A DNA stretch of 64,000 nt from Dehalococcoidia bacterium (GCA_965116355.1 OZ220679.1:926669-990668), one strand, 5' to 3'. Positions 1-32,174 are shown, counted from the stretch's first letter. Numbers and translations are program-made. Notes: a model not told the origin generated them from the letters alone.

Positions 1-1443
1 ATGCAGGTCGCGGACCAGCTCGCCGATCTCAAGGCGAATCACATGACGGCCACGACGGGCAAGGACGATCTGAAAGACGAGATCGAGCTGGTGCAAGACG
101 AATTGCGGGAGGCACTAGCTGACACACCTGCCCCGGAGAATGCTATCGACTGGCGGGTTGATTTCGCGGAGGTGTTCACTAAGCGGCGGGGGTTCGATAT
201 CGCCATCGCGAATCCTCCTTACGTGCAGTTGCAGACTAATGAGGGTCGCCTGGCAAACAAATACAAAAGCACCGGCTACAAGACCTTCGCCCGAACAGGG
301 GACATTTACCAACTCTTCTTCGAGCGAGGCTGCCAGGCGCTCAAGCCCGCCAACGGCCTGCTGGCATACATCTCTTCAAACAGTTGGCTCAAGGCGGAGT
401 ACGGCAGGTCCACCCGCCGTTACTTCTCCGATGAGCACACACCCCTGCGACTGCTGGAGCTGGGCAAGGACGTTTTCGAGGCGGCCATCGTGGATTCCGG
501 CGTGCTGGTGCTGCGGACGGGGGGTGCCGGCGCGGTGTTCCCCGGCGTCGACATGGACCGTTTACCCTCCAAGCAAGTCCCACCCGCCGAAGTCCTATGG
601 GGCCGCGTGCGGCCCAATAGTGAGGCACCCTGGAGCATCTTGTCCCCTTTGGAGCAGGGCGTGTTAGAGAAGATGCTGGCTGTGGGAACACCGCTGAAAG
701 ATTGGGATATTGCGATTAACTACGGGATAAAGACCGGCTTCAATGACGCCTTCATCATCGATAACCAGACTAAAGAGGGATTGATCGCACAGGACCCGCG
801 ATCCAAGGACATCATCAAGCCCGTACTGCGAGGCCGAGACATTGAGCGCTATCGAGCGAAATGGGCCGGCATGTGGCTCATCGACACTCACAACGGATAT
901 GACGGTGTCCCGCCGATTGAGATCAATGACTACCCTGCCATAAAGACTTACCTCGACGGCCAATACGAGCAATTGGAGAAGCGATACGACAAGGGACGGA
1001 CACCGTATAACCTTCGTAACTGCGCTTACCACGCAGAGTTCACTAAGGAGAAGCTCTTCTGGATAGACCTTACTGAACAGGGCAGGTTCGCGTACGACGC
1101 CAGCGAGATGTTCTGTGTGAATTCTGCATACATGATGACAGGGGATTCGATCAAATACCTATGCGCGGTACTTAACTCCACCCTCGTGACTTGGTTCATG
1201 GGGAGCAGCGCACTCAATTCAGGGATGGGTACCACTAGGTGGGTTAGATTCACAGTCGATCGCATTCCCGTTCCCACAATTGACACTACGAGGCAGCGGC
1301 CTTTTATCCAGCTTGTAGACAAGGTTTTGCATGCCCGCAGTGTCAAGGGGAATACGCGAGAGTTAGAGGCGGACATTGATCGACTAATCTATGCTCTGTA
1401 CGGCCTTACTGAGGATGAAATTCAGTGGATGGCCAGTAGCTGA
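1..1443 (+). CDS. N6-adenine DNA methyltransferase, Eco57I/PglX-like (type IIG / BREX-type); 5' end lies outside the window; C-terminal TaqI-like target-recognition domain (TRD)
   Basis: ORF is open to the window edge. Catalytic motif IV NPPY is present (DIAIANPPYVQLQ). C-terminal blocks GIKTGFNDAFIIDNQTKE, KPVLRGRDIERY, YLCAVLNSTL and YGLTEDEI are typical of TaqI-like specificity domains. Confidence 0.85.
   Translation: MQVADQLADLKANHMTATTGKDDLKDEIELVQDELREALADTPAPENAIDWRVDFAEVFTKRRGFDIAIANPPYVQLQTNEGRLANKYKSTGYKTFARTGDIYQLFFERGCQALKPANGLLAYISSNSWLKAEYGRSTRRYFSDEHTPLRLLELGKDVFEAAIVDSGVLVLRTGGAGAVFPGVDMDRLPSKQVPPAEVLWGRVRPNSEAPWSILSPLEQGVLEKMLAVGTPLKDWDIAINYGIKTGFNDAFIIDNQTKEGLIAQDPRSKDIIKPVLRGRDIERYRAKWAGMWLIDTHNGYDGVPPIEINDYPAIKTYLDGQYEQLEKRYDKGRTPYNLRNCAYHAEFTKEKLFWIDLTEQGRFAYDASEMFCVNSAYMMTGDSIKYLCAVLNSTLVTWFMGSSALNSGMGTTRWVRFTVDRIPVPTIDTTRQRPFIQLVDKVLHARSVKGNTRELEADIDRLIYALYGLTEDEIQWMASS
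741..778. repeat. Left arm of a 38-bp inverted repeat (candidate recombination site) inside the methyltransferase gene
   Basis: CAATGACGCCTTCATCATCGATAACCAGACTAAAGAGG matches the reverse complement of 2241-2278 at 37/38 positions. Flanking homologous coding sequence is clearly more diverged. Confidence 0.8.
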
Positions 1444-1506
1444 AGTTCTTGGGTCCTTCACTACCTTTGCAAGAGCAGCGGCCCGCCGGGCCAGATGCAA
1501 ATGGGC

Positions 1507-2361
1507 CTAAAGGTGTTCTTCGACTTCCGAAATCTCCTGCGGAGTTAGCCCGTAGAGCTGATACACCTTCTTATCAATTTCTGCTTCAGTCAATGATGTG
1601 TTGGACGCCTGATCCTTCACCTTGACTCGAATGATCTGATCAGTCATTTCGATGAACAGCCGCTGATTGCCGGGAGTGAGGCTTGGGATTGGGATGCGCT
1701 CAACTGCGAACTTCTTCCACTGAGGCAGCCCCATGCCAGTTGTCAATGCCGCGGTCTTCATTAGCCAGGCGATCAAGGTGCTGTTGAGGACTGCACACAG
1801 GTATTTCAAAGACGCACCGGTCATCATGAAGCCCTTGTCGTTGCAGAACATTTCATCATTGGAGTAGCTGAATCTACCTCGCGCGGTCATATCCATCCAA
1901 AACAGCTTCTCTCTCTTGAAATCCTCGTGGTAAGCGCAGGTATCCTGCATTTCGAACCACGCATTCGTGGTCTTTTTCCTTGCTTTGCTGGCGTTAGGCA
2001 GGGGTTTGCCCCTAGAGATAAACCCATTAGGCAACGTTACCCCTGACTGCTCTAATCGTGCTTTGCCAAAGCAAAGCAAATGCTCCTTGACAGCCGGATA
2101 GTCGTTGATGTTGAGACCAAGAGCAGGGAAGGTGGCTATAAGCCAATACCCTTTCCAGTGTGCTTGGTATCGCTGGATGTCTCTTCCCCGCAGCACTGGC
2201 TTGAGTATCTCGGCGGACTTGGGGTCTTGGGCTACCAGTGCCTCTTTAGTCTGGTTATCAATGATGAAGGCGTCATTGAGACCAGTGGTTATTCCTCTAT
2301 AAATCGCATATCCGTGCGATGAAGACCCAGGGCGTGACTCATGTTCGCCCAGTTGAAGCAC
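1507..2361 (-). CDS. Silent alternative TRD cassette: inverted, 5'-truncated paralog of the methyltransferase C-terminus with no methyltransferase core
   Basis: Protein blocks parallel those of 1..1443: GITTGLNDAFIIDNQTKE, KPVLRGRDIQRY, LKYLCAVLNSTL, YGLTPQEI. Homology starts only at the inverted repeat; the N-terminal approximately 20 aa of the ORF are unrelated. Orientation is convergent with the active gene. Confidence 0.7.
   Translation of the reverse strand: MLQLGEHESRPGSSSHGYAIYRGITTGLNDAFIIDNQTKEALVAQDPKSAEILKPVLRGRDIQRYQAHWKGYWLIATFPALGLNINDYPAVKEHLLCFGKARLEQSGVTLPNGFISRGKPLPNASKARKKTTNAWFEMQDTCAYHEDFKREKLFWMDMTARGRFSYSNDEMFCNDKGFMMTGASLKYLCAVLNSTLIAWLMKTAALTTGMGLPQWKKFAVERIPIPSLTPGNQRLFIEMTDQIIRVKVKDQASNTSLTEAEIDKKVYQLYGLTPQEISEVEEHL
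2241..2278. repeat. Right arm of the 38-bp inverted repeat
   Basis: Reverse complement equals 741-778 except for one C/T difference. Confidence 0.8.
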
Positions 2362-2457
2362 TTGAGCCTACCATTCTTGTCATCCAGCAAAGCCATGCTT
2401 GCAGAACCCATACGCACGGACAACCTGTAGTCATGTGCCAAAAGCAGGGAGGCCAGG

Positions 2458-3426
2458 ATGATAGACCGGACAGCAACAGGAATAGGGGTGTCAGTGGACG
2501 AGCTCCCATCCGAATTGGCTGACAACACCAAGACGGCATATCAAAAGGGATGGAAAAAGTTCATCGACTTCTGTGCTGCAGGAGACATTACCGATCCTCT
2601 TGCCGCATCTCCTAGTGACGTCGTCAATTTTCTTGTCCAACTGGCCACTCAGGCCAACCCACAAAGTGGGGTGACTCCCTCAATGGGCACTGTGTTGCTC
2701 TACAAGAGCGCGGTGAACAAGAAATACCTCGCTGCCGGGCAATCATCGCCTACGGGACACCCATCGGTACAGTCGACGCTCAAAGGGCTCGCAAGGCTCA
2801 AGGGATCCTCACCGCGTCAGGTGGAAGCATTTCGCGAATTCCATATCACCGCGATGTTGAAATCATGCCCCACTTCTCTCATAGGTAAGAGGGATGCTGC
2901 AATCATCGCACTTGGTTTCGCAGGGGCGCTACGCCGGTCGGAGATCTGTGGGCTGATGGTCGAGGATGTAGAGTTCATAGATCCCACAGCCACGGAGGCG
3001 CCGCGCATTTGGCTGACGATTCAGCACTCCAAGACAGACCAGCACGGGCGCGGGCAGAAGATAGCAATCGTGGACGGACAAGGTATCCGCCCAATAGAAC
3101 ATCTGCATTCGTGGCTTGACGCTGCCGGTATCTCGAAGGGCCCACTATTCCAGTCCATGAGGCGTGGCGGGCACCTGCGCGGCAATCCCATGCACCACAG
3201 CGACGTCCCGCGCATTCTGAAATACTACGCCACCAAAATCGGGCTAGATCCCAAGAACATAGCAGGACATTCGTTGAGGGCAGGATTCGTCACCAGTGCG
3301 GCTGTTCACAATGCCCGGTTAGACAAGATCATGGCCGTCACCCGCCATACTGACCCTGCGACCGTCCTGCGATACATACGCGATGCGGATGCCTTCACAG
3401 ATCACGCAGGACAGCATTTCCTCTAG
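2458..3426 (+). CDS. Tyrosine site-specific recombinase (phage-integrase / XerC-D family)
   Basis: N-terminal SAM-like core-binding region (TKTAYQKGWKKFIDFC). C-terminal catalytic region (ALRRSEI, HSLRAGFVTSAA, TRHTDPATVLRYI). GGGAGG lies upstream of the ATG. Confidence 0.85.
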   Translation: MIDRTATGIGVSVDELPSELADNTKTAYQKGWKKFIDFCAAGDITDPLAASPSDVVNFLVQLATQANPQSGVTPSMGTVLLYKSAVNKKYLAAGQSSPTGHPSVQSTLKGLARLKGSSPRQVEAFREFHITAMLKSCPTSLIGKRDAAIIALGFAGALRRSEICGLMVEDVEFIDPTATEAPRIWLTIQHSKTDQHGRGQKIAIVDGQGIRPIEHLHSWLDAAGISKGPLFQSMRRGGHLRGNPMHHSDVPRILKYYATKIGLDPKNIAGHSLRAGFVTSAAVHNARLDKIMAVTRHTDPATVLRYIRDADAFTDHAGQHFL

Positions 3427-3427
3427 G

Positions 3428-3456
3428 CTGACTAGCTTCCAGCCCATGGATATAAT
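3428..3456 (+). promoter_or_regulatory. Predicted sigma70-type promoter for the toxin-antitoxin pair
   Basis: CTGACT (3428-3433), a 17-nt spacer, then TATAAT (3451-3456), about 90 nt upstream of the antitoxin ATG. Confidence 0.35.
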
Positions 3457-3543
3457 GAGATGAACATCCTCTACTCCACTATACCTCCAACACTACTGGC
3501 GACCCTAAGGAAGCCGGAGGGGCCGATAGGGAAGGTGCATGGC

Positions 3544-3828
3544 ATGACGACACACGTGAGAGCGCGATACTCCAATGGGGTGCTGACGCCGCTGGAGCCT
3601 CTGGACTTGAAGGAGGGCTCCGAGGTGACGGTGTCGGTGGAAGAGGACAATGGCGCAAAGGCGGAAGTACAGAACGCCGGGGGGCCGTTAGCCAGCGTGC
3701 TGGCTCTGGTCCAGGAGATGGAGAATACCATTCCCCCGGAGGAATGGGCATCCCTTCCTACCGATGGTTCCAGAAACCATAAGCACTACTTGTACGGGCA
3801 TCCAAAGGAAGAGGACAGATGCGACTAG
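3544..3828 (+). CDS. Antitoxin, AF2212/DUF104-like (partner of the PIN toxin)
   Basis: VRARYSNGVLTPLEPLDLKEGSEVTVSVEE matches the DUF104 signature as I recall it. Internal ATG at 3544 chosen as start. The 3' end overlaps the toxin start by 10 nt. Confidence 0.75.
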   Translation: MTTHVRARYSNGVLTPLEPLDLKEGSEVTVSVEEDNGAKAEVQNAGGPLASVLALVQEMENTIPPEEWASLPTDGSRNHKHYLYGHPKEEDRCD

Positions 3829-4241
3829 TCTTCGTGGATGCCGGGCATTGGATCGCCCTGTGGAACCCGCAAGATGCGTTGCACCAAAGGGCGGTGGCCC
3901 TCTCCAGCACCTTGCAGGACGCTCAGCTAGTCACCACACAGTCTGTGTTGGCAGAGACCCTCGATTTCATGGCAGCCGCGGGGGAGTTTCGGCGGCTGTA
4001 TGCCGTACAGATGGTGCGTGACCTGGAAAGGAACCCCAACATCGAGATCATCCCGCAGACGGCGGTACAGTTCCGAGGTGCCGTCGAGCGGTATGCCGCG
4101 CGCAGCGACCAGCGGTGGAGCCTAACGGACTGCGCGAGCTTCCTTGCCATGGAGGAACGGGGCATCACGGAGGCCTTGGCCTACGACCGGGACTTTGAGA
4201 GGGCAGGTTTCCGTGCCCTGCTGCGAGAGGACCCCGCATGA
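3819..4241 (+). CDS. vapC: PIN-domain toxin (VapC-like ribonuclease)
   Basis: N-terminal VFVDAGHWIAL with the conserved Asp, and later acidic residues (SLTDCAS, YDRDF). About 140 aa, translationally coupled to the upstream small ORF. Confidence 0.8.
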   Translation: MRLVFVDAGHWIALWNPQDALHQRAVALSSTLQDAQLVTTQSVLAETLDFMAAAGEFRRLYAVQMVRDLERNPNIEIIPQTAVQFRGAVERYAARSDQRWSLTDCASFLAMEERGITEALAYDRDFERAGFRALLREDPA

Positions 4242-4275
4242 CCTCCGCACATTACTCCGCCAAGGATGTGCTGCG

Positions 4276-7200
4276 TTGAACATCCTTCACGCCACGACGG
4301 AGCCGACGCTGCTGGCCCGTCTCAAAGAGATGCTGGGCAGCTCGGCGAGTGCTGACATTGCCGTCGGTTACTTCTTCATCAGCGGCTTTGAGGCAGTGGC
4401 CGACGACTTTGCTCGATTGGGCAAGGTTCGCATCCTGGTAGGGCGCACGGACCGGCAAGTGCTGGACGAAGTCGCGCTCGGCCTGCAGCAGCAGCAAGCG
4501 CTGAGCGCGCGGCTGCGTGCGGATTCGCTCGTGCAACGCAGCCAACGAAGCCAGATTGCCCAGGAGACCATCGAACACGTTGCTGAAGGCATCGCAGTGC
4601 TCCCACAGCAGCGGGGCTCGGAGGAGGCGGTTTCAAAGTTGAGGGACATGGTGGCGCAAGGCAAGTTGGAGGTGCGGGCCTACTTGCGGAGCCCCCTGCA
4701 CGCCAAGGCGTACCTCTGCTGGTATGAGAATCACGCGGAACCCGGCTCCGCGGTGGTGGGGTCCTCCAACCTCACCCTTGCAGGGTTTACCGGCAATACT
4801 GAGCTCAACGTTCGCGTTACTGGTGACGCGGAGATGGAAGCCTTGCGTGAATGGTTCGACGCCCTGTGGAAGGAGTCTGAGGACATCAGCGGTGCCTTAG
4901 TCGCCGAGTTGGAACGCTCGTGGGCGCTGGCTAAGACCCCGCCGTACCACGTGTATCTGAAGGCGCTGTATGAGCTGTACTACACCGATGCGGGAAGCGG
5001 ACAACTGACAGTTCCCCCGCGTGACCAGGGGCTGGCCAATTTCCAGTTGGATGCGGTGCGTCGCGGGCTCTCGATGATCAGGCAATACGGCGGCTGCTAC
5101 ATCGGCGATGTGGTCGGGCTGGGCAAGACCTTCGTCGGCGCCGAGCTCCTGCACCAGCTTCGCATGAGCTATCCCAACGATGGCCCGCCTCTCATCCTTT
5201 GCCCAGCCAGGCTCAAGCCGATGTGGGAGCGATTCAACGAGCGGTTCGCGCTAGGTGCGGAAGTCGTCTCACACAGCATGATAGGCGCGCCGGCCGACTC
5301 CGAGTTCGATGAAGAGTTGGGCCGCTACGTAGATGTCGCTCAGCCAGGGCAAGGAGTCGTTCTCGAGCAAATGTACCGCAACCGGGGGCCGGTGCTGGTG
5401 GACGAGGCGCACAACTTTCGCAACATCAACCAGCGGTCCAGGGGGCTCGCCAGCTACCTGGAGTCGAGTGAGCACAAGGTCATCCTTATGAGCGCCACAC
5501 CGCAGAACCTTGGGCCGATGGACGTTTACCGCCAACTCCGCCTGTTTCTCCACGACACCGAACACGACCTGAATATCGAACCAATCAGTCTTGAGTCCTA
5601 CTTCCACAACGCCCAGCTGTGGCTGGTGTACCGTGCCGAGTATGAGAACTACGAGGCTGCGTACAGCGCATGGCAGGCGGCCGGATCAAGAGGGGCGCCG
5701 CCTCTGCCTCCCACCAAGCCAGGTGTTCTAAAGGCTGAAATCGACCAAGTGCTCATGCCCGTCTTTGTGCGTCGCCGACGCAAGGACATCCGTGACCTGT
5801 ATGGAGACACAGCGGAGATAGACGGCAAGCCAGTCCGCTTCCCCGAACCAGTGCTCGACAACGTGGAGTACCGGCTGGACAAGGTGTACGCAAAGGCAGG
5901 CCCCTTCGACGAGTTACAATCGCTAATCCTTGACCATCAGGCCGCTCGGTATCGTGCGACGGAGTACATCAAGGAAGCAGCGAAAGGGAAAGCAGAGTAC
6001 CGTGACCTCTTCCGTGCGGGGGACAGGATCGCCCGGCTTATGGGTGTCCTGCTACTGAAGAGGCTGGAGTCGAGCATTGAGGCATTTCGCTCCACATTGA
6101 CCTCCCTCCTTACAAGCAACCGGAACTTTCGACAGGCGCTGGATGCCGGCTTCGTTCCCATCGGGAGCACGGCCACGCGCATGTTGGCCGGCCAGTCGTT
6201 CGATGTCGATGATTTGTTGGAGGTTCTTACCCAGGAAGAACAGCGTCGACAGCAGGCTGGAAGCGGGCGAGACAAGCTAGTCCATGCGACCGACGACTTC
6301 GAGACCGATAGATGGAGCCAAGACCTGGATGCCGACTACGAGGTCTTGGAGAGCATCCTCGGCCGTGTTAAAGAAATCGGGCCAGAAGACGATGACAAGC
6401 TGCGGGCTCTCCGGGAGTTTCTCGCCAGGCCGGAGGTGAAGTCGGGGAAGGTGTTGATCTTCTCCGAAGCAGAAACCACAGTGGAATACCTATACAGGGA
6501 GCTCAATCCTGGCGGGGACCTGGCACACATCGCGCGCTTGACTGGTAGCACCAGCAACGTCGCAGAAAGCGTCGTCAAGCGATTCTCGCCCACGTGGAAC
6601 CTGGGAGCACGGGAGTCTATGCCTGGGCCGGAGATACAAGTGCTCTTGGCCACGGATGTCGTTTCCGAGGGCCAGAACTTGCAGGACTGTGCCTGCGTTC
6701 TGAACTATGACTTGCACTGGAACCCTGTGCGCCTCATCCAACGGTTCGGGCGGGTCGACCGGATCGGCACGGAACATGAAGTCATCAACCTGCACAACAT
6801 GTGGCCCGACCTCGCAGTTGATGCCGAACTGTCCCTGACGGAGCGGCTTCACCGACGCATTCAATCCTTCCATGACCTCATCGGCTTGGACAGCAAGCTC
6901 CTCTCCGACTCTGAGCGCCTGAACACTGGAGCGATGTATCGCATATACCAAGAAAAGGCCCTACCGGAGATGGATGACGGGCTTGATGAGGTGGCTGCCA
7001 ATCAGCGTGCGATTACGTTGCTCCAGCGCATACAGGAAGAGGACCCGGCGTTGTGGCAAACAATCACGCGGTTGCCGGACGGCATAAGGTCGGCCCTGTC
7101 GGTGCACGAAGAGCAGCCTGAAGCCTCGAACGAGCAGTACGCCCAAGCCGTGCTTGCTGTTGACGGGATGCAGGCCCCTCTGATCTCGCCGACGACCCTG

Positions 7201-7770
7201 ACTTCGATTGCTACTCCCTTTGACGACCCCAAACCAGGGGAGACTCTGGTTCTGCTAAGCGCGGGCGGGGTTAAGAGCTGCTACGCCGTCGACAGCAACC
7301 TGCAACCGCGTGCTATCAGTCCTGCCCAACTCATCGCGGCGGCTGAATGTGGCCCCGACACGCCAGCACAACAGCTGCCACAGGACACGAATGAACGCGT
7401 AATGGCAGCGTTCGAAACATTCTTCGCGGACTTCCAACGTCGGCTCGGGAGAGCTAGAAGGACGCGTGACACAAGAGTTCGTCGCTATATCTCTCGCCAC
7501 CTCGGTATCGCCATTCGTGAGGCGAGTGAGGAAACAAGTTTTGTGAGCCGGATCGACGTGTTGCGTCAGATATTCCTAAGTGACGTGTCGCCGCAGGTTG
7601 AGAGCGCTTTGGGCGAAATCAGGAATATGCAGCTCGAGGGCCCCGCACTCGTGACTCGCCTTGAGGCCCTCCGAGAGCGCTACCGTCTCAACCCACCCGA
7701 TGAAGCTGAAGTCGCTCAGAGCGTCGAGCCCCAGGTGATTCGCATAGTCTGCTCGGACGGGCTCGTTTAG
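4276..7770 (+). CDS. PLD-family nuclease domain fused to an SNF2-family (SF2) helicase, with a long uncharacterised C-terminal region
   Basis: N-terminal HxK PLD motif (SPLHAKAYLC...GSSNLTLAG). SNF2 motifs are I GDVVGLGKT, II LVDEAHNFRN, III LMSATPQN. Helicase-C is LATDVVSEGQNLQDC...NYDLHWNPVRLIQRFGRVDRIG. Start is uncertain: TTG 4276 is chosen because it follows the PIN stop and AAGGA, and ATG 4330 is the alternative. Confidence 0.8.
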   Translation: MNILHATTEPTLLARLKEMLGSSASADIAVGYFFISGFEAVADDFARLGKVRILVGRTDRQVLDEVALGLQQQQALSARLRADSLVQRSQRSQIAQETIEHVAEGIAVLPQQRGSEEAVSKLRDMVAQGKLEVRAYLRSPLHAKAYLCWYENHAEPGSAVVGSSNLTLAGFTGNTELNVRVTGDAEMEALREWFDALWKESEDISGALVAELERSWALAKTPPYHVYLKALYELYYTDAGSGQLTVPPRDQGLANFQLDAVRRGLSMIRQYGGCYIGDVVGLGKTFVGAELLHQLRMSYPNDGPPLILCPARLKPMWERFNERFALGAEVVSHSMIGAPADSEFDEELGRYVDVAQPGQGVVLEQMYRNRGPVLVDEAHNFRNINQRSRGLASYLESSEHKVILMSATPQNLGPMDVYRQLRLFLHDTEHDLNIEPISLESYFHNAQLWLVYRAEYENYEAAYSAWQAAGSRGAPPLPPTKPGVLKAEIDQVLMPVFVRRRRKDIRDLYGDTAEIDGKPVRFPEPVLDNVEYRLDKVYAKAGPFDELQSLILDHQAARYRATEYIKEAAKGKAEYRDLFRAGDRIARLMGVLLLKRLESSIEAFRSTLTSLLTSNRNFRQALDAGFVPIGSTATRMLAGQSFDVDDLLEVLTQEEQRRQQAGSGRDKLVHATDDFETDRWSQDLDADYEVLESILGRVKEIGPEDDDKLRALREFLARPEVKSGKVLIFSEAETTVEYLYRELNPGGDLAHIARLTGSTSNVAESVVKRFSPTWNLGARESMPGPEIQVLLATDVVSEGQNLQDCACVLNYDLHWNPVRLIQRFGRVDRIGTEHEVINLHNMWPDLAVDAELSLTERLHRRIQSFHDLIGLDSKLLSDSERLNTGAMYRIYQEKALPEMDDGLDEVAANQRAITLLQRIQEEDPALWQTITRLPDGIRSALSVHEEQPEASNEQYAQAVLAVDGMQAPLISPTTLTSIATPFDDPKPGETLVLLSAGGVKSCYAVDSNLQPRAISPAQLIAAAECGPDTPAQQLPQDTNERVMAAFETFFADFQRRLGRARRTRDTRVRRYISRHLGIAIREASEETSFVSRIDVLRQIFLSDVSPQVESALGEIRNMQLEGPALVTRLEALRERYRLNPPDEAEVAQSVEPQVIRIVCSDGLV

Positions 7771-7915
7771 GCGGACTCGGTGTCCCCTAGTCACCACTTC
7801 ACTCCGCTCATCCTGACAAGACGCGGCTTGGCCTTCGTGTCGAGTCTTGATTCAGGAGTTCAGAACGAAAGACCGAAATGTTGCTGGCATCTGTGGAAGT
7901 AAGGTGAAACAAGCA

Positions 7916-10318
7916 CTAGGTGTCGGATTCGGAAGCTAATCGCAACACAACTGAGGGCCCGGACCAAGAGGGCAAAACACGAATGTCGAGGGGGATCCCT
8001 ATTGCAAGAAGTGACAAGACGTCATCATGGTGATCTGGTCCAACGGTGCCTACGATTTCGCCATTCACGTAGACTGCAATTGGCGCAGGTGCCAGTTGAT
8101 TCGGCTCATACGTGAGTCTAGCCGTGGCCTCTTCATAAACTGGCACGCGTTCGTCGTATGCAATTGTGTATTCTTCGCCTTCAAGAACCTCGTTTACAAG
8201 TCGTAGGCTCGGGTCTCTCGCGAAAGCCAATAGGTCGGCTATCTCCGTGGGAGAAGCATCGAACTTCTCTCGCCACGCCGCAATGCTCTGACTCGCAACC
8301 CATTCACGTAGGGACATGTCCGCGAATTCACTGCCAGCCGCTCGGTGATCCTCTGCTACGCGGTTGGCAAGCCTTCGGGAGCGTACGCCTCCCAACATGA
8401 GGTTCAGAGCACTTCTTGTAGCGACGCCATAGTGCACTGACGCGGCGAGATCATTCGGTATGCTGTAGGGAATCGCCTCTTTCTCAAGGTTTTCGTTCAC
8501 CCAGTCAACCAAGGTATTTAGAGCCCAAGGCAAATGGTGCTCAAAGACAGACGCGACAAACTCTACAAGCTGTTCGTATCGGTAGTCTTCATTTTGAACA
8601 GAGGCCAAGTACTTGTCTGCTAGGTCTTGAAGATCTGTTCCGGATACCCAATCAATGAGAAGCATCATTAGGTCAACGGGAAGGAGACTATCCCTCGGAG
8701 CGTTACGGATCTCCTTGAAGCCCATTCTTCGGTTTTCGGACAAATGAAGGACTTTCTCAAGACGCCCTTCACCAAGGATCATCGAAATGGCCAACGGCGG
8801 CTCGCTTTCGGCAATGTCGGACGTTATCGAATTGAGCACTTCTAATGTGATTTCCTCTAGTGTCGCAGCACTGGGAAGCGACATTCCAGACTGCGTCCAT
8901 CTTCTGCGTCGGTCAACCGGCAGCACCGAGAAAGCACGAAATGCTCGTGTCACAATCTCGCGCCATTGCACTCTGCTGTTCTCGTCCAACTGTTGCCAAG
9001 CGAGGGTGGACGTGAGTGCCTCCAGTACATCGTCAAGGGTCGCGGACCGACCAAGCTCCGCTAAAGCTTGCGCGATAAGCCATACGGAGCGTACGAATCC
9101 ATTTGCTTCTGAACCAAAGTGAGCAAAAATGGCGTCTTCTTGTGCCCTTGCACTCTCCTCCAGTCGCGCCAACTGAGCCAATGCCTCTTCTGACGTCATG
9201 GTGGATCGCATGTCCAGGTCCCTTGCAGTTTGGTCAAGAGGGCGGAACATTGAACGGTTAAAGGTGGCATGCTCCACAAGTATCAGCCAACCCTCGGTTT
9301 CGCGCCCCGCTCGACCTGCCCGTCCGATGGCATTGAGGAGGCGTGCACTATCTACAACTTCGACGACCCCCTCTGAGTCTCTATAGCCGCGCTCAGCTAC
9401 AATTACGCTCTTGAATGGAAGGTTGACACCCTCAGTCAACGTAGTGGTTGCGACTAGGCAATTGATTTGACCAATTCGGACAGCCTCCTCGATTTCAGAC
9501 TGAACATCGATAGGAAGCGCCGCATGATGAAACGCAACACCTTTGGCGATTACTCGCGTTAGCGGGTGTTCAGACCCGAGCCTCGTTCTCACTAGATCAG
9601 TCAATGCAAAAGAGGTAGGGTCATCTTCCATAGAGTTGGCAATCCTCTCGGCAAGCCTTTGTGCGGAGCCCTTGGTCGACACAACGATCAAGACGGAACC
9701 CGAAGACTGGACATGGGTGATCAGCGGTAAGAGTTGACCATGCTGAGTGGTGCTCCGTGAAGAGTCTCGGACCCAAACCCCATTCTTCTGCTGACGCATT
9801 ACCAACGTGCCAACGGATTCCGAGAACTCTCCTCGACGAAATGAGCCGGAAAGCCCGGTTCGGAGATGTACCAGGCCCTTGAGGGGGATGAAGCGTCGCG
9901 CAAGAGTATTGCCCGATGGGGGTTGATCGCTCACCGAGCTCCCATCTGCCCTAGCCGTATAGACAACGGCAAGGCGCCGAGGCCCCCTCCAATCTACATG
10001 CCGTGAGAGTACTCCGTTGCCCGAATCCAGCCATGCTGTCACGTGAGCTTGGTTTCCAAGGGCTGCCGATAGCACCAGTATCCTGTGGTGCGAAGTCTTC
10101 GTAAGGTGATGCAGGAGAGAGAGTGTTTCCTCGAGTCTCCAACCACGCTCTCGATCAGCAACAAGGTGCGCCTCATCGATCACAAACATTCCGAACTCGC
10201 TTAGCAGGCCCCCGGGATCACTACGCAATCGGCTAGAAAGCCTCTCAGGGGTCATGACAACGGCTCGTGCTGAAGCTGGCTTGGAGGTTCCAAGTCCTAT
10301 GTCTGGTTCGACATGCAA
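7916..10318 (-). CDS. Ski2/Hel308-like DEAH helicase, C-terminal fragment (HamB-like); carries motifs Ib-VI plus winged-helix/ratchet-like domains
   Basis: VVMTPERL, FVIDEAHLV, VLSAAL, LVATTTLTEGVNLP and IGRAGRAG. The C-terminal LMMLLIDWVSGTDLQDLADKY segment resembles the Hel308 ratchet region. It lacks motif I, which sits in the overlapping upstream ORF. Confidence 0.75.
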   Translation of the reverse strand: MHVEPDIGLGTSKPASARAVVMTPERLSSRLRSDPGGLLSEFGMFVIDEAHLVADRERGWRLEETLSLLHHLTKTSHHRILVLSAALGNQAHVTAWLDSGNGVLSRHVDWRGPRRLAVVYTARADGSSVSDQPPSGNTLARRFIPLKGLVHLRTGLSGSFRRGEFSESVGTLVMRQQKNGVWVRDSSRSTTQHGQLLPLITHVQSSGSVLIVVSTKGSAQRLAERIANSMEDDPTSFALTDLVRTRLGSEHPLTRVIAKGVAFHHAALPIDVQSEIEEAVRIGQINCLVATTTLTEGVNLPFKSVIVAERGYRDSEGVVEVVDSARLLNAIGRAGRAGRETEGWLILVEHATFNRSMFRPLDQTARDLDMRSTMTSEEALAQLARLEESARAQEDAIFAHFGSEANGFVRSVWLIAQALAELGRSATLDDVLEALTSTLAWQQLDENSRVQWREIVTRAFRAFSVLPVDRRRRWTQSGMSLPSAATLEEITLEVLNSITSDIAESEPPLAISMILGEGRLEKVLHLSENRRMGFKEIRNAPRDSLLPVDLMMLLIDWVSGTDLQDLADKYLASVQNEDYRYEQLVEFVASVFEHHLPWALNTLVDWVNENLEKEAIPYSIPNDLAASVHYGVATRSALNLMLGGVRSRRLANRVAEDHRAAGSEFADMSLREWVASQSIAAWREKFDASPTEIADLLAFARDPSLRLVNEVLEGEEYTIAYDERVPVYEEATARLTYEPNQLAPAPIAVYVNGEIVGTVGPDHHDDVLSLLAIGIPLDIRVLPSWSGPSVVLRLASESDT

Positions 10319-11400
10319 TTGTGTCCGAGTGTAAGGAGGCGTCGCCTGAGCGAAACACTAAGCTCGCGACAAAGGCTATGCGTAGGAGCGACGACACATA
10401 CGTCGCCAGTGCCTTCAACAATGTGGGTTGTTACGAAGAGTTGAGCCAATAGGCTCTTGCCGGCGCTAGTGGGGAAGGAGAGGATAATTCTCCGGGCGGT
10501 TGGGTGGAGGGGCGACACACCGCCAGGTGCGTCAGGTGTGAGAAACGACAACTGTGGAGGCCAAAGTTGTAGGACCGGCGGGTCCCCCAGAGTCATTGCC
10601 CGTGCTGCACTTGGTAGGTTGGGAGGAAGAACACTCCATACGGCGGCAGCCTCCAATCCGTCTGAAATCCTCAGGAGGTGCGCGGCTACCCATCTGGATT
10701 CGACATCACTCGGCGCACCCAGAGTCTCAAGCGCTCGCCTGAATTGTCCCCGCGCGCTGTCCAACGAATTATTGCGGCCGTAGGTAAGGAAATCCGTTAG
10801 AGCTCGAGTCCCCCTTATGACGCCGTCAGTTGATGCGTATTTGGAATCTTCGACATTGCCAAATTCAGAAACTAGGCTGTCTAGCTGGTTGGCCCTTGTT
10901 TGAAGTAATGGGTAAAGAGCAGGACGGTCAAGCGCCAGCATCAAGACCCCAGCTTGAAGTGAGACGACTCCAGGGTCATCTAGTTGTTCGGGTTCACGGA
11001 CTATCGAAATCCGACGTGCGAGCGCAGCAGCATTTGGCGTCAACTGCCCGCCGATGTATGCAATTTGCGCCGCAAGTGTGTACTGCAACACTTCCAATTC
11101 TGTCAGGTCCCCGCTTTGGAGAGCGAGATCAAAGACGTGTCCGGAGACCTGATGGGCTTGCCGTTGTCGTTGGAGGTCATAGACTTGGAGGTCCTCCCGA
11201 GCCGTGGCTACGGATTGCAGATACCATGCAACATCAAGCAATTGCGGGTCGAAGTCGGCTTGGCGGGTGAACAGGCCAATCTCAGCAGTGGAAAGCAGGG
11301 TTCGGAGATCGTCAGGAGATGGCAACCGTGGGTGATCGCCTACGGCGTTAGTCAGAAGGTCAATATTTAGTGCCCGATCCACAACCCACAACCCTTCCAA
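10297..11400 (-). CDS. N-terminal fragment of the same helicase: unique approximately 290-aa N-domain plus motifs I/Ia
   Basis: FPTSAGKS (Walker A / motif I) and VVAPTHSLCRE (Ia) near the C-terminus. It ends 22 nt inside the next ORF in another frame. TTG/GTG start candidates at 11400/11382 overlap the upstream gene. Confidence 0.7.
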   Translation of the reverse strand: MEGLWVVDRALNIDLLTNAVGDHPRLPSPDDLRTLLSTAEIGLFTRQADFDPQLLDVAWYLQSVATAREDLQVYDLQRQRQAHQVSGHVFDLALQSGDLTELEVLQYTLAAQIAYIGGQLTPNAAALARRISIVREPEQLDDPGVVSLQAGVLMLALDRPALYPLLQTRANQLDSLVSEFGNVEDSKYASTDGVIRGTRALTDFLTYGRNNSLDSARGQFRRALETLGAPSDVESRWVAAHLLRISDGLEAAAVWSVLPPNLPSAARAMTLGDPPVLQLWPPQLSFLTPDAPGGVSPLHPTARRIILSFPTSAGKSLLAQLFVTTHIVEGTGDVCVVAPTHSLCRELSVSLRRRLLTLGHNCMSNQT

Positions 11401-12221
11401 AGCACTCTTCTTACTTCTTCAGCCAGACTAGGGAAGCCATCGACAAGGTTCAGGTTTCCCTGATGCTGGTCTGAAGGTAAGTCGAAGTAGCTTGTCACAT
11501 TGTTGAAACAACCATGTTCTCCCGTCGCTGGTGAAACGTCAGACCCGACGACTATGCCAACACCGGCAGAGGGATCTTTATCGGCCCAAAGCTCGGCGAT
11601 TCGGGCATAAAACGTGGCAAGTTGGTGATCATCACTAAGGTATTGGGCTACCAGTGAAAACCGAGCCAAGTAGTCGAGGGCACGATCCTTAACCTGTCTG
11701 CACGCAGTGTTGACCGTATCCGTAAGTGGACGTCCAGTGCCATGGAACTTAGACTCCCATAATCTGTAGGAATAGCCTCCGTTTGATTCGTATACAGTCA
11801 AACCGTCGCCGCCTGGATCCGCCACAGACCAGTCATGACTTTCCACTCTGATTGGGATACCAAGACCGACATCCTTGTTGGCTACAACGGCCTGCCATAT
11901 GGCCTCAGCAACGAGGCCATATAGATGCTCCTCTACAGCTGGTTCAGTTGGCGTTCCAACATTCTCAAGAAGCGACTGTTGAAGGACTCTTGCGGCAACG
12001 TTGTCAAGTGCCTCGTCTATGCCGTCAATCGCACGGCAGTGCCACAGTCCAAAAAGCCTCTTATCCATCAACCGACGTGATGCAATGCTGCAGGCCAAGG
12101 ATGCCGCAGCTGCGTCACGATTGGCTGATGCGAGGCGCCCATACAAACAAAATACCCCGGCCGCCGTAGTTTTGATTGAAAAGGTCAGAAGCGCTGGGAG
12201 GGGTGCACAAGATGCCTTCAT
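11367..12221 (-). CDS. HamA-like protein (DUF1837-type, PD-(D/E)xK nuclease-like); upstream partner of the helicase
   Basis: GDGLTV...YRLWESKFH gives a D...ExK arrangement. About 230-280 aa, directly upstream of and overlapping a Ski2-like helicase, as in Hachiman loci. ATG 12068 is an alternative start. The family call is from memory and was not searched. Confidence 0.5.
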   Translation of the reverse strand: MKASCAPLPALLTFSIKTTAAGVFCLYGRLASANRDAAAASLACSIASRRLMDKRLFGLWHCRAIDGIDEALDNVAARVLQQSLLENVGTPTEPAVEEHLYGLVAEAIWQAVVANKDVGLGIPIRVESHDWSVADPGGDGLTVYESNGGYSYRLWESKFHGTGRPLTDTVNTACRQVKDRALDYLARFSLVAQYLSDDHQLATFYARIAELWADKDPSAGVGIVVGSDVSPATGEHGCFNNVTSYFDLPSDQHQGNLNLVDGFPSLAEEVRRVLWKGCGLWIGH

Positions 12222-13181: not shown

Positions 13182-13922
13182 CACGAAGCCGCTTCGGGAG
13201 GTAATGACAATGACACGGGCATTCGCCCACCGCGGGAAACCAGAGACTAGGTAAGAACGCCTGCACCACCGCTGCCGCATACGTACGTGTAGGGGGCCTC
13301 TCACCTACCGCATTGCACGCTTGCGACCCTTCCGTTTCCCCATACAGGCCTCCCACTGCTAAACTGGCCTTGGGGCGATTGCACTCTTGCCCCGGGCCCG
13401 CGATCACCCGCCGGCGCGCTGGGCGGCATGCGGCCCCAACGATCTCCCCGGCGGCGGCACATGGCCGGCGATGTCGGCGACCCACAGCGGCCGCCATTCC
13501 GGTCAGGTCGGCGAACCAGCCCGCCCCTGCCCCCACTCGGGGGGCGGTGATCGCGCCGTGGCAGGACCCCGTTCAGGGCCACCCAGGCGCTGCGGCACCG
13601 TGCCCCAGTCTAAGCTCTCGCCGATGCGCAGGCTGGCCGCGCCCGGGGGAGAGACCGTCTCCTGGCGCCTGGCCTGCGGCCCCCGGTACCGAATGCCCCG
13701 CCCGATTGACGGCTGCACCCCTCGCGGCACGATAGTGCGGTGCATCCACCACGTCGTCTGGCCACCATTGAAGGACTTACGCTGAAAGTTCACCTAGATT
13801 TGCACCGATAATTCACCCCCACGTCACAGAACATCCCCTATTATCTTCATGGGAGTATGCGCTTGCTGACCGGCGGGCCTGGGACCTGCCGGGGCAGCGC
13901 CAGTGTTGCTCAACGGACAAGG

Positions 13923-16900
13923 ATGCGAGGTATGGCAGAGAAGAAACGGACGGGCTTCCTCTTCGCGATTCTGGCGGTGGTTCTCATGGTCGTTGGCTGT
14001 GAGTCGCAGGAACCTTCTGCCTTTACGGCCCCTGAGGCCCAAGAACACCGAGAGCCAACCGTCACCCAGACGCCCGCTGCAAGCCTGAAACTTGGCAATC
14101 CTACGCCCACTCCAACGGCTGTCGTGGCCCAGGAAACCGGTACTACTGATAGTGGCCTTATACCCACTCCAACGGCTGCCGTGGCCCGGGAAACCGCTAT
14201 TTCTGATAGAGGCTTGACACCTACTCCGACGGCAGCCGCAATCCAAGAATCCAATGCAAAGGACAATAGCCCTGCCCCCACCCTCGAAGCATCGCCAACC
14301 CCCAAGAGGAGTGACGAGTGCGTCACAGGGGTCGCTGTGGTGGACGCCGACGACAACCCGGGGCTGGTCTCCGACTGCACCACTCTGCTGGCGGCGCGAG
14401 ACACCCTGGCGGGCAATGCCACGCTTAACTGGTCGGCGGACACGTCCATCTGGCAATGGGATGGCGTCTCTATATGGGAGACGCCTCATCGCGTGAGGGG
14501 CTTGTATCTGGAGTCCAGGCAACTAAGTGGGGAAATACCGCCGGAGTTAGGCGACTTGGCCAGCCTCCGGCAACTGAACCTCAGCGACAACCAGCTGAGC
14601 GGGGCGATCCCACCGGAGTTGGGCGACCTTGCCAGCCTGACCGATCTGACCCTCAGCGACAACCAGCTGAGCGGGGCGATCCCGCCGGAGTTGGGTGACC
14701 TTGCCAGCCTGACCAATCTGACCCTCAGCGACAACCAGCTGAGCGGGGCGCTGCCCCCGGAGTTGGGGAGCCTCGCCAACCTGGAGTCACTGCGGCTGCA
14801 GGACAACCGGTTGAGCGGAGAGTTGCCCCCGGAGTTGGGCAACCTCGCGAACCTGGAATGGGTTTTTCTTGCCAACAACCAGCTAATCGGGGAGATACCG
14901 CCGGCGATGGGGAACCTCGCCAACTTGATAGTTCTGGCGCTCAGTGGAAACCAGATCGACGAATGCGTCTCCATCGCAGTGCCGGACGTGGCCAATAACC
15001 CGGGGTTGCTGTCTGACTGCCGCGCACTGGTGGCCGCGCGGGACACGCTGTCGACGCATAGCGTCCTTAACTGGCTGGCGACGACGCCCATCAGTGAGTG
15101 GGACGGGGTTCACGTGAGCGGGACACCAAAGCGGGTGACGGCAATTCGAGTGCGACGTGGTTGGTTGGATGGGAAGATACCTGTTGAATTGGGCGCCCTT
15201 TCCAGTCTGACCAGTCTGGACCTCAGTGACAACCAGCTGCGTGGGGCGATCCCGCCGGAGTTGGGCAACCTCGTCAAACTGGAGTCACTGCGGCTGCAGG
15301 ACAACCAGTTGAGCGGAGAGTTGCCCCCGGCGTTGGGAAACCTCGCGAACCTCACAGAGTTGAACCTCCACGGCAACCGACTAGGCGGGGAGATCCCGAC
15401 GGAGCTAGGCGTCCTCACCCGCTTGAGAGTCCTGAGCATCGGGAGGAATGGTTTCAGCGGGGAGATCCCGCTGGAGTTGAGCGCACTTGTCGACCTGAGG
15501 AGACTCAATCTCGGGGGCAATTTGTTGAGCGGGGAGATCCCGTCGGAGTTGGGCGCCCTCCCCAACCTAACGTCACTGGACCTCGGAGTGAACAAGTTCA
15601 GCGGGGCGATCCCGTCAGAGTTGGGGAACCTCTCCAACCTGGAGCTTCTGAGCCTCGAAAGGAACCAGTTCAGCGGGGCGATCCCGCCAGGGTTGGGAAA
15701 CCTCACCAACCTGGAGTCACTGGACCTCCATGGCAACCAGTTGAGCGAGGAGATCCCGCCGGCGTTGGGTAATCTCTCCCCCCTGACGGAACTATGGCTC
15801 GGGGGCAACCAGCTAAGCGGGACGATCCCGGCCGAGTTGGGCAAACTTATAAACCTGACCGATTTGTACTTGAGCCATAACGAGTTGAACGGGGCGATCC
15901 CGCCGGCGTTGGGCGGCCTCACCAACCTCCTATGGATGGATGTCAACGACAACCGGCTGAGCGGGGCGATACCGCCGGCGTTGGGCAACCTCGTCAATCT
16001 GACGGAGCTGAACCTCAGCGACAACCGGCTGAGCGAGGCGATACCGCCGGCGTTGGGCAACCTCGTCAATCTGACGGAGCTGAACCTCAGCGACAACCGG
16101 CTGAGCGAGGCGATACCGCCGGCGTTGGGCAACCTTGCCAGCCTGACCAGTTTGAACCTCAGCGACAACCAGTTGAGTGGGGCGATCCCGCCGGAGTTGG
16201 GCAACCTCGTCAATCTGACGGAGCTGAACCTCAGCAATAACCAATTGAGTGGGAGTTTGCCGCCAGAATTGGCCAACCTCGTCAACCTGGAAAGGCTGTT
16301 CCTCAGCGGCAATCAGTTCAACGAATGCGCGTTACTTCCAGTGGAGGAAGTCGACCCCACCCCGGGGCTCCAATCCGACTGCCGCGCTCTGCTGGCGGCG
16401 CGGGGCCCCCTGGGGGGCGACTATTCGCTTAACTGGTCAGCGCTCACCCCCATCGCCCAGTGGGACGGAGTTCGGGTGAGTGGGACACCCCAGCGCGTGA
16501 CGGCATTGCAAGTGCATACCAAGCATTTGAGCGGCGAGTTACCTCCGGTGCTGGCACAGCTCTCCAACCTGACAGAATTGGACCTCAGTGGCACCCGGTT
16601 GAGGGGGGCGATCCCGCCGGAGTTGGGGAACCTTGCCAACCTGACCGTCTTGGAACTTGGGGGCAACCAGTTGAGCGGGGAGATCCCGCCGGAGTTGGGC
16701 AACCTTGTGAACCTGACCGTATTGGACCTTCGGAACAATCAGTTGAGTGGGGTAATGCCACCGGAGTTGGGCAACCTCGCCAGCCTGAGGGAGATGACCC
16801 TCAGTGACAACCAGCTAAGCGGGACGATCCCGGCCGAGTTGGGCAACCTCGCCAATCTGGAAGTGCTGTTGCTAAAGGAAAATGCGTTGAGCGGGGCCAT

Positions 16901-32098: not shown

Positions 32099-32174
32099 TG
32101 GTGGAGATAGGGGGATTCGAACCCCCGACCCCTTGCATGCCATGCAAGTGCTCTTCCAGCTGAGCTATATCCCC
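32099..32174 (-). tRNA. tRNA-Ala (anticodon GGC), CCA encoded
   Basis: The reverse complement folds as a cloverleaf: GGGGATA-TA-GCTC-AGCTGGAA-GAGC-A-CTTGC-ATGGCAT-GCAAG-GGGTC-GGGGG-TTCGAAT-CCCCC-TATCTCC-A-CCA. The G3:U70 alanine identity pair is present. Confidence 0.9.

Follow-up and report, generated by a model that had tools for sequence, protein, structure and literature searches.

The closest characterised relative of the locus described here is the four-gene system (MtsA-D) known as MANTIS, as Gao_RL or as the Type-2, DUF499-centred BREX-related (BR) system. Its MtsD protein joins a nuclease of the HKD type to a Swi2/Snf2 ATPase in one chain and forms a dimer with one PLD site; restriction depends on the methyltransferase MtsC for site recognition, MtsD acts downstream, and reconstitution of cleavage in vitro is still outstanding (preprint 10.64898/2026.09.23.753747). 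Long-read-confirmed inversions have been listed in Type II restriction-modification (RM) genes that lie beside a PLD+SNF coding sequence, in Bacteroides ovatus and one other genome (CP083813.1 and CP044495.1; Milman et al. 2023, PMC9881135, Table 3). A family of “HKD+Snf2” proteins, C3a139, was seen four times beside Type III CRISPR-cas cassettes, with no function or partner proposed (Shah et al. 2018, PMC6546367). A literature search for a named two-gene system returned just those table entries, that list entry and the work on four-gene MANTIS/BR systems. In this report, we analysed a 64,000-nucleotide stretch of DNA from a Dehalococcoidia bacterium (GCA_965116355.1 OZ220679.1:926669-990668; hereafter “the window”), whose first 7,770 nucleotides hold the 3′ part of a gene for an N6-adenine methyltransferase (MTase) and, downstream, a gene for a single protein with PLD-nuclease and SNF2-helicase domains (PLD-SNF2). 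We conclude, with a probability of roughly 0.6, that these two genes constitute an ATP-dependent, restriction-modification-like defence module of two components. The locus is one example of a large, widespread and uncharacterised two-gene relative of MANTIS/BR, DISARM and BREX type 3, and we rate the pair as a simpler, minimal relative of the known multi-gene systems, not as a new kind of system.

A first-pass annotation of this DNA had described the product of the downstream gene as an HxK PLD nuclease fused to a full SNF2 core. That description is borne out by Pfam, by motif conservation and by profile matches to the Protein Data Bank (PDB). The open reading frame (ORF), which is identical to the called protein P0001, has the sequence AAGGA nine nucleotides 5′ of its TTG start. 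The nuclease domain was recognised by PLDc_2 (E 4e-11; 43 bits against a cut-off of 27) and by the RE_NgoFVII PLD family; in the helicase portion, Helicase_C matched residues 708-831 (E 6e-16) and SNF2-rel_dom matched residues 269-421 at 24.5 bits, slightly below its cut-off of 24.9. Six motifs are nearly or fully invariant in 50 homologues: H142-x-K144, GSSN 162-165, GLGKT 281-285, DEAH 376-379, SAT 406-408 and QRFGRxDRIG 822-831. Helicase motifs I, II, III and VI are all present, as expected of the SNF2 family. The HxK...GSxN motif of the PLD/HKD superfamily is present as well, and its residues H142, K144 and G162-S-S-N165 are nearly or fully invariant in distant homologues too. Searched against the PDB, a profile built from the distant homologues retrieved ISWI, RapA and DDM1 with E-values between 1e-29 and 1e-25. 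The best PADLOC profile was C3a139 (PDLC01075; 204.5 bits), with residues 12-865 aligned to positions 11-762 of 948.

The first-pass annotation had also reported some 400 C-terminal residues with no recognisable motif. The region is indeed unassigned, but it is shorter, at about 330 residues (832-1164). A Pfam scan of residues 921-1164 gave no match, and Foldseek on the model of the whole protein returned nothing informative for the C-terminal 330 residues. The sequence up to about residue 945 and a terminal RI(V/I)CS motif are common to the wide family, the remainder being confined to the close clade; S1160 is nearly invariant among distant homologues.

An N6-adenine MTase co-oriented with the PLD-SNF2 gene had likewise been recognised at the start of the window, and the Pfam families Eco57I (93.8 bits) and TaqI_C (54.2 bits) and an NPPY motif were found there. 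The PADLOC model REase_MTase_IIG matched at 312 bits (profile positions 695-1141 of 1148). The fragment aligns to residues 540-1020, approximately, of full-length homologues of 1018-1105 amino acids; thus, the gene begins about 1.6 kb before the first nucleotide of the window. In the full-length homologues, MmeI_Mtase, Eco57I and TaqI_C are found from about residue 415 on, and residues 170-400, approximately, align to the MmeI-type helical spacer of the MTases that accompany the distant Pelobacter (99.7% probability) and Rhodococcus (96%) homologues of PLD-SNF2. The partners of distant homologues additionally match MmeI_hel; the Rhodococcus partner contains MmeI_hel, MmeI_Mtase, MmeI_TRD and MmeI_C, without MmeI_N. 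The layout of the MmeI family, namely a helical spacer, a gamma-class N6-adenine MTase and a C-terminal recognition domain in a single polypeptide, is therefore present.

MmeI cleaves DNA with an N-terminal PD-(D/E)xK nuclease domain, in which the motif residues are D70 and E80-x-K82. The N-terminal 165 residues of the MTases studied here match neither MmeI_N nor any other Pfam family at E ≤ 5. The MmeI_N model is present and sensitive, because a positive control, an N-terminus of MmeI, reaches 157 bits on it. No conserved D...(D/E)xK was found in the N-terminal domain, the beta2 and beta3 strand positions carry no conserved acidic or lysine residues, and both a profile search against PDB sequences and an hhalign comparison with this MmeI N-terminus aligned the helical spacer alone. 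On these sequence grounds, we read the MTase as an MmeI/PglX-like methyltransferase-specificity protein that probably has no working nuclease of its own. An MmeI layout without a detectable nuclease domain in turn makes the PLD-SNF2 protein the likely nuclease.

The MTase could instead be a self-sufficient Type IIG/IIL RM enzyme with a non-canonical N-terminal nuclease; PLD-SNF2 would then play an auxiliary part and enhance or prolong restriction, for instance by moving along the DNA away from the site and degrading it. This explanation would account for the fact that the best PADLOC models for the MTase are Type IIG enzyme-methyltransferases (312-473 bits), and for the strong conservation of the N-terminal domain, which has invariant acidic and polar residues (among the invariant positions D40, R86, D106, N113, Q118, H120 and R135) and a confidently modelled fold (alpha-alpha-beta-beta-beta-alpha-beta-beta-beta; pLDDT above 90, with the model good for residues 1-140). 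We nonetheless consider it unlikely. The PADLOC matches start past the nuclease part of the profiles, and the domain neither aligns to MmeI nor conserves the expected D and (D/E)xK positions; it also gives no MmeI_N match at E ≤ 5, although the control shows that MmeI_N was searchable. A Foldseek comparison of the N-terminus with the PDB found nothing significant; its closest matches of relevance, to Hjc resolvases, reached a TM-score of about 0.35 with E above 1.

The conservation of the pair indicates that its two members work together. From a one-genome-per-species scan that returned 440 relatives we kept the best 80 loci (60-83% identity, 10 kb on each side, all Chloroflexota); two metagenomic loci and the window brought the total to 83, in which ORFs were called and 1640 proteins clustered. 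The PLD-SNF2 family is found in all 83 loci, and the MTase family lies within 10 kb upstream of it in 76, on the same strand save in two. At one extreme the genes overlap by a few nucleotides, at the other they stand about 9 kb apart, and they are directly adjacent or overlapping in several loci (e.g., L025, L047 and L071). There is no third conserved family within 10 kb on either side; the next cluster, an AF2212-like antitoxin, occurs in 18 loci. Divergences of the PLD-SNF2 protein and of the conserved 700 residues of the MTase are correlated (Mantel r = 0.73, reached by 0 of 2000 permutations). Since the 80 close loci come from one phylum, distant plasmid homologues (27-31% identity) were also examined. 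All nine that were opened have a large “DNA methyltransferase” gene beside, and co-directional with, that of the “helicase-related protein”. They belong to the Euryarchaeota, Thermodesulfobacteriota, Actinomycetota, Cyanobacteriota and Deinococcota (Thermococcus, Halorussus, Pelobacter, Rhodococcus, Rathayibacter, Picosynechococcus, Anabaena, Planktothrix and Thermus). Both gene orders are seen in these plasmids; the genes overlap or abut in three, and one to three genes intervene in the others. Linkage between this fusion family and methyltransferases, which the first-pass annotation had named beforehand as the test of its proposal, is thus a conserved feature. Its suggestion of a self/non-self system stands insofar as the two genes are a conserved functional pair; that discrimination depends on methylation, we infer. 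The family itself is large: an exhaustive HMMER search yielded 14947 representatives at E ≤ 1e-3 and at least 1505 clusters (50% identity) at E ≤ 1e-30, with members mostly of 1040-1150 residues that span query residues 10-945, approximately.

A quite improbable alternative is that these are independent defence genes that merely cluster, the PLD-SNF2 protein being a stand-alone, SauUSI-like nuclease that senses modification or structure and the MTase being an orphan or a phase-variable epigenetic regulator. The locus does sit in a defence island, with a Hachiman-type helicase adjoining; GmrSD, McrBC and other defence genes flank homologues; and SauUSI shares the PLD-helicase plan. Such an explanation would also accommodate the few loci that have PLD-SNF2 with no MTase. 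However, the pairing persists across domains of life while the other neighbours vary, the divergences are correlated, and the genes overlap in L047, L084, L085 and L090, which suggests translational coupling. Four loci (L026, L051, L055 and L072) have no MTase and three (L054, L059 and L074) retain a 3′ remnant alone, with the PLD-SNF2 gene intact in each; this suggests that the nuclease is harmless without its partner, and it fits targeting by the MTase.

Five Chloroflexota genomes carry two distant copies of PLD-SNF2: OZ253565.1 (L026 and L030), OZ250156.1 (L028 and L060), OZ253575.1 (L029 and L034), OY839116.1 (L057 and L061) and OZ219765.1 (L078 and L082). An MTase accompanies nine of these ten copies, L026 being the one without. 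A gene for a 120-residue XRE-type helix-turn-helix protein lies upstream of, and divergent from, the MTase gene in L004, L006, L007, L009-L011 and L025 (e.g., L011:5033-5395, minus strand), and one stands between the MTase and PLD-SNF2 genes in L003 and L005. It could be an analogue of the controller proteins.

The pair resembles several described systems without coinciding with any of them. Like MANTIS, it combines an N-terminal HKD/PLD-Swi2/Snf2 ATPase with an N6-adenine MTase, which in MANTIS provides site recognition, and an RM-like logic would be expected of it (preprint 10.64898/2026.09.23.753747; Rakesh & Krishnan 2026, PMC12839542). MANTIS, however, also needs MtsA (a DUF499 AAA+ ATPase) and the small co-regulator MtsB, which load and activate its MTase; neither is conserved here, and the MTase of the present pair is much larger, with an MmeI-like N-terminal domain and spacer. 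The NCBIfam model for PLD anti-phage proteins NF042964, which we presume to be the MANTIS/Gao_RL-type (MtsD) model, is collinear with PLD-SNF2 (residues 16-878 against positions 18-835 of 895; E 2.8e-44), but the score of 152 bits is far below its equivalog cut-off (1100). We rejected an assignment to MANTIS, Type-2 BR or Gao_RL: no DUF499 (MtsA) or DUF3780-type (MtsB) family is conserved across the 83 loci, and the plasmid homologues consist of MTase and helicase, with variable small genes.

In class 1 DISARM (DrmA, DrmB, DrmC, DrmD and DrmMI), too, an Eco57I-type adenine methylase occurs together with a PLD nuclease and an SNF2 helicase, and PLD-SNF2 resembles a DrmC-DrmD fusion in its domain content, with DrmD matches of about 114-150 bits. 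The DrmD model NF038317 covers residues 537-909 at 150 bits, against a cut-off of 610, and the MTase fits Type IIG models far better than DrmMI (312 versus 56 bits). Conserved families corresponding to DrmA (YprA-type helicase) or DrmB (DUF1998) were found neither within 10 kb of the 80 homologous loci nor at 7.7-24 kb of the window. Class 1 DISARM was rejected on the absence of DrmA and DrmB around the homologues and on a DrmD score well under the cut-off.

As in BREX PglX, the MTase is without the nuclease of MmeI; PglX, however, acts with BrxA/B/C, PglZ and BrxL, whereas the sole conserved partner here is PLD-SNF2. The PglX model NF033452 gave 54 bits against a cut-off of 500. No conserved BrxC, PglZ, DUF499, DUF3780 or helicase family is found in the 10 kb upstream of the 80 loci; BREX was rejected on that score and on the lack of a conserved large ATPase or phosphatase neighbour. 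The first-pass annotation had suggested a DISARM- or BREX-flavoured system whose deciding partners might lie upstream. That the pair belongs to a more extensive canonical system, be it class 1 DISARM, BREX or the four-gene MANTIS/BR type 2, is hardly credible, since, despite the weak matches to DrmD, DrmMI, PglX and BrxHII models and a window that begins inside the MTase gene, no third family is conserved around the 80 loci, the DrmD, PglX and MANTIS-type scores fall far below their cut-offs, and the close relatives L001 and L002 contain no DISARM, BREX or MANTIS partner genes.

The resemblance to the MmeI-family Type IIL/IIG enzymes lies in the retained order of spacer, gamma-MTase and recognition domain; MmeI differs in that cleavage requires no ATPase and is performed by a PD-ExK domain at the N-terminus of the enzyme itself. 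Type I and Type III RM systems and PLD-helicase enzymes of the SauUSI/CglI type likewise couple an ATP-dependent motor to a nuclease. In the Type I/III systems, specificity resides, as here, in the modification subunit, and hsdS shufflons of Type I are inverted by a recombinase, as is proposed for the present locus; the present motor, however, is SNF2/RapA-like instead of HsdR/Res, and the nuclease is PLD instead of PD-ExK. SauUSI, by contrast, acts alone and on modified DNA. Lastly, the loci of Milman et al. (PMC9881135) share an inversion-targeted MTase/RM gene beside a single PLD + SNF helicase coding sequence; they are from other phyla, are listed entries not defined as a system or checked for conservation, and are likened to ours by arrangement, not homology.

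Several points weigh against the reading of the pair as a two-component module with the MTase as its specificity subunit. The window holds just the 3′ part of the MTase gene. The strand order predicted for the alpha/beta domain at the MTase N-terminus would, with faint support, fit a restriction-endonuclease-like fold, and a domain with invariant D40, D106, Q118 and H120 may be a non-canonical nuclease. In the loci compared, many MTase genes are broken into two ORFs close to where the recognition domain starts, and database proteins that match the MTase N-terminus are mostly of 330-735 residues; the split and short forms could be products of decay, of assembly errors at invertible regions, or both. 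The linkage and the Mantel signal could partly reflect shared descent, the 80 close loci all being from Chloroflexota. Because the alignment available for PLD-SNF2 is shallow (68-91% identity), its structure model is poor (mean pLDDT 59, pTM 0.41); Foldseek matched this low-confidence model to SWR1, Chd1 and RapA at E about 1e-11, confirming the SNF2 core alone. Finally, dimerisation of PLD-SNF2 and a function for its C-terminal region are proposed by analogy.

The features of the module are collected in Table 1. A scan of positions 1300-8100 for promoters and terminators gave counts no higher than those of shuffled controls.

Table 1. Features of the MTase/PLD-SNF2 locus, in window coordinates (nt, nucleotides; aa, amino acids).
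Feature	Position	Strand	Description
MTase/specificity gene, 3′ part	1-1443	+	Last 480 codons; gamma-class N6-adenine MTase, NPPY at nt 211-222 (aa 71-74); active TaqI_C-type target-recognition domain
Inverted repeat, left arm	740-778		39 nt, partner 2241-2279 (38/39 identical); on the 5′ edge of the recognition domain, candidate site of recombination
Second inverted repeat, left arm	1020-1033		14 nt, exact, partner 1926-1939; possible second crossover site within the recognition domain
Silent inverted target-recognition cassette	1507-2361	-	284 aa, without an MTase domain; TaqI_C 50.4 bits (Pfam); PADLOC IIG profile 887-1143 of 1148
Tyrosine recombinase	2458-3426	+	Pfam Phage_integrase 52.7 bits; putative invertase of the recognition-domain switch
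Degenerate extra copy of the PLD-SNF2 ribosome-binding region and first 18 codons	3444-3513	+	MNILYSTIPPTLLATLRK versus MNILHATTEPTLLARLKE; counterpart 4260-4330
AF2212-like antitoxin ORF	3460-3828	+	Pfam E 1.6e-11, match from residue 29; secondary cargo
PIN-domain (VapC-like) toxin	3819-4241	+	Pfam PIN E 4.7e-9; 10-nt overlap with the antitoxin gene; secondary cargo
PLD(HKD)-SNF2 helicase-nuclease	4276-7770	+	1164 aa, TTG start; predicted restriction effector
PLD/HKD nuclease domain	4336-4869	+	aa 21-198; Pfam PLDc_2 and RE_NgoFVII; single HxK, H142/K144 at nt 4699-4707; GSSN 162-165
SNF2-type ATPase core	5032-6768	+	aa ~253-831; GLGKT nt 5116-5130, DEAH nt 5401-5412, Helicase_C nt 6397-6768
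C-terminal region without family assignment	6769-7767	+	aa 832-1164, ~330 aa

Between the MTase and PLD-SNF2 genes, the first-pass annotation had listed only a recombinase and a toxin-antitoxin pair. Those genes are there, but the list omitted the silent minus-strand cassette. This cassette holds the right arms of both inverted repeats, and it shares 82% identity with the recognition domain that is active in the MTase of another locus (L003). The 39-nt repeat is enclosed by a longer inverted similarity (177 nt, 71%) between the active and silent recognition domains, and its core, TTCATCATCGATAACNAGAC, is also an inverted repeat in L003, L029, L070, L075 and L078. Inverted repeats with the core of the 14-nt repeat, (C/T)TGCGCTTACCACG, are likewise present in L003, L014, L075 and L078. 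A recombinase orthologue stands beside a silent cassette in nine of the 83 loci. With a silent inverted cassette, inverted repeats at the boundaries and an adjacent recombinase, the anatomy of an invertible switch is complete and is standard for an invertible specificity gene; inversion itself may take place. The combination with a phase-variable methylase had been expected to be unusual. These nine loci and the repeat cores shared by several of them argue otherwise, as do the entries of Milman et al. 2023 (PMC9881135), according to which a phase-variable methylase had already been seen together with a PLD-SNF protein.

The small genes upstream of PLD-SNF2, an antitoxin gene that overlaps a PIN toxin gene, have the layout of a VapBC-like type II toxin-antitoxin system; the AF2212-like family lies between the two core genes in 18 of the 83 loci. 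The first 18 codons of the antitoxin ORF are the duplicated start of PLD-SNF2, and this copy looks like the scar of a cassette insertion. Degenerate copies of the first 18-37 codons of PLD-SNF2 with their upstream bases are found 5′ of the real gene in eight of the 83 loci (the window, L050, L012, L027, L028, L030, L038 and L052). At L050:3715-8003, a 187-nt repeat is present four times and frames three small cassettes, which we judged by eye from the translations, not by HMM, to be RelE/ParE-like, HicA/HicB-like and AF2212-like plus PIN. The duplicated starts look like the result of cassette insertions that duplicate their target and regenerate the start of the gene. More generally, the interval between the MTase and PLD-SNF2 genes is a hotspot for cargo (L003-L082; L086:9473-10106; L083:6316-7945), with PIN, ParE, AF2212-like, DUF4365 and DUF6338 genes, and the pattern extends to distant phyla: Picosynechococcus has VapC at this place and Thermococcus AbiEii.

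Beyond the module, the minus strand carries a Hachiman-type HamB / PDC-M23B helicase divided between two overlapping ORFs (7916-10318, 800 aa; 10297-11400, 367 aa). Together they are collinear with one profile of about 1060 residues, which points to a frameshift or a pseudogene. At the place expected for HamA is a 284-residue ORF without a family match (11367-12221, minus strand). Just past the defence genes are a 1321-residue leucine-rich-repeat protein (13857-17822, plus strand) and a 616-residue RCC1-repeat protein (19992-21842, minus strand), and a tRNA-Ala gene is located at 32099-32174.

How might the two components cooperate? By analogy with MmeI, PglX and MtsC, the MTase (about 1020-1100 residues) would read a short, probably asymmetric site and methylate adenine in the host's copies of it. 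At unmodified sites, it would recruit or activate a PLD-SNF2 dimer; that the protein has just one HKD motif implies dimerisation around a common active site, the arrangement solved for MtsD. The dimer would use ATP to travel on or remodel DNA and cut with the shared HKD site, and PLD-SNF2 would probably depend on the MTase for its targeting. Through inversion at the 39-nt repeat, the tyrosine recombinase would exchange the active cassette for the silent one. Because one recognition domain would serve both activities, such a swap would alter specificity without uncoupling protection from attack. The toxin-antitoxin pair would have arrived later, as cargo, at the 5′ end of the PLD-SNF2 gene. A more elaborate reading, which we offer tentatively and regard as doubtful in its entirety, joins two proposals. 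The pair might be a minimal form of the BREX/DISARM/MANTIS lineage, in which the nuclease-less MTase alone marks self DNA and licenses dimeric PLD-SNF2 through the conserved N-terminal domain of the MTase and the nuclease's conserved C-terminal region. In addition, the operon might be an integration platform, a little like an integron, where toxin-antitoxin cassettes enter at the 5′ end of PLD-SNF2, each bringing or duplicating a replacement start, and so build arrays such as the four 187-nt repeats of L050.

If the pair is such a two-component module, its significance extends beyond this Dehalococcoidia genome. The means by which MTases of the PglX/MmeI type communicate with their restriction partners are unresolved for BREX and have only just been addressed for MANTIS, and a two-gene version that is widespread in bacteria and archaea would be a much simpler system for the study of coupling between an MTase and a motor nuclease. 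Defence-finding tools now divide the pair into a “Type IIG” match and an orphan “HKD+Snf2” candidate; they would gain from a definition of the pair. Finally, the invertible recognition domain shows how specificity may be altered without risk where methylation and cutting are directed by the same subunit.

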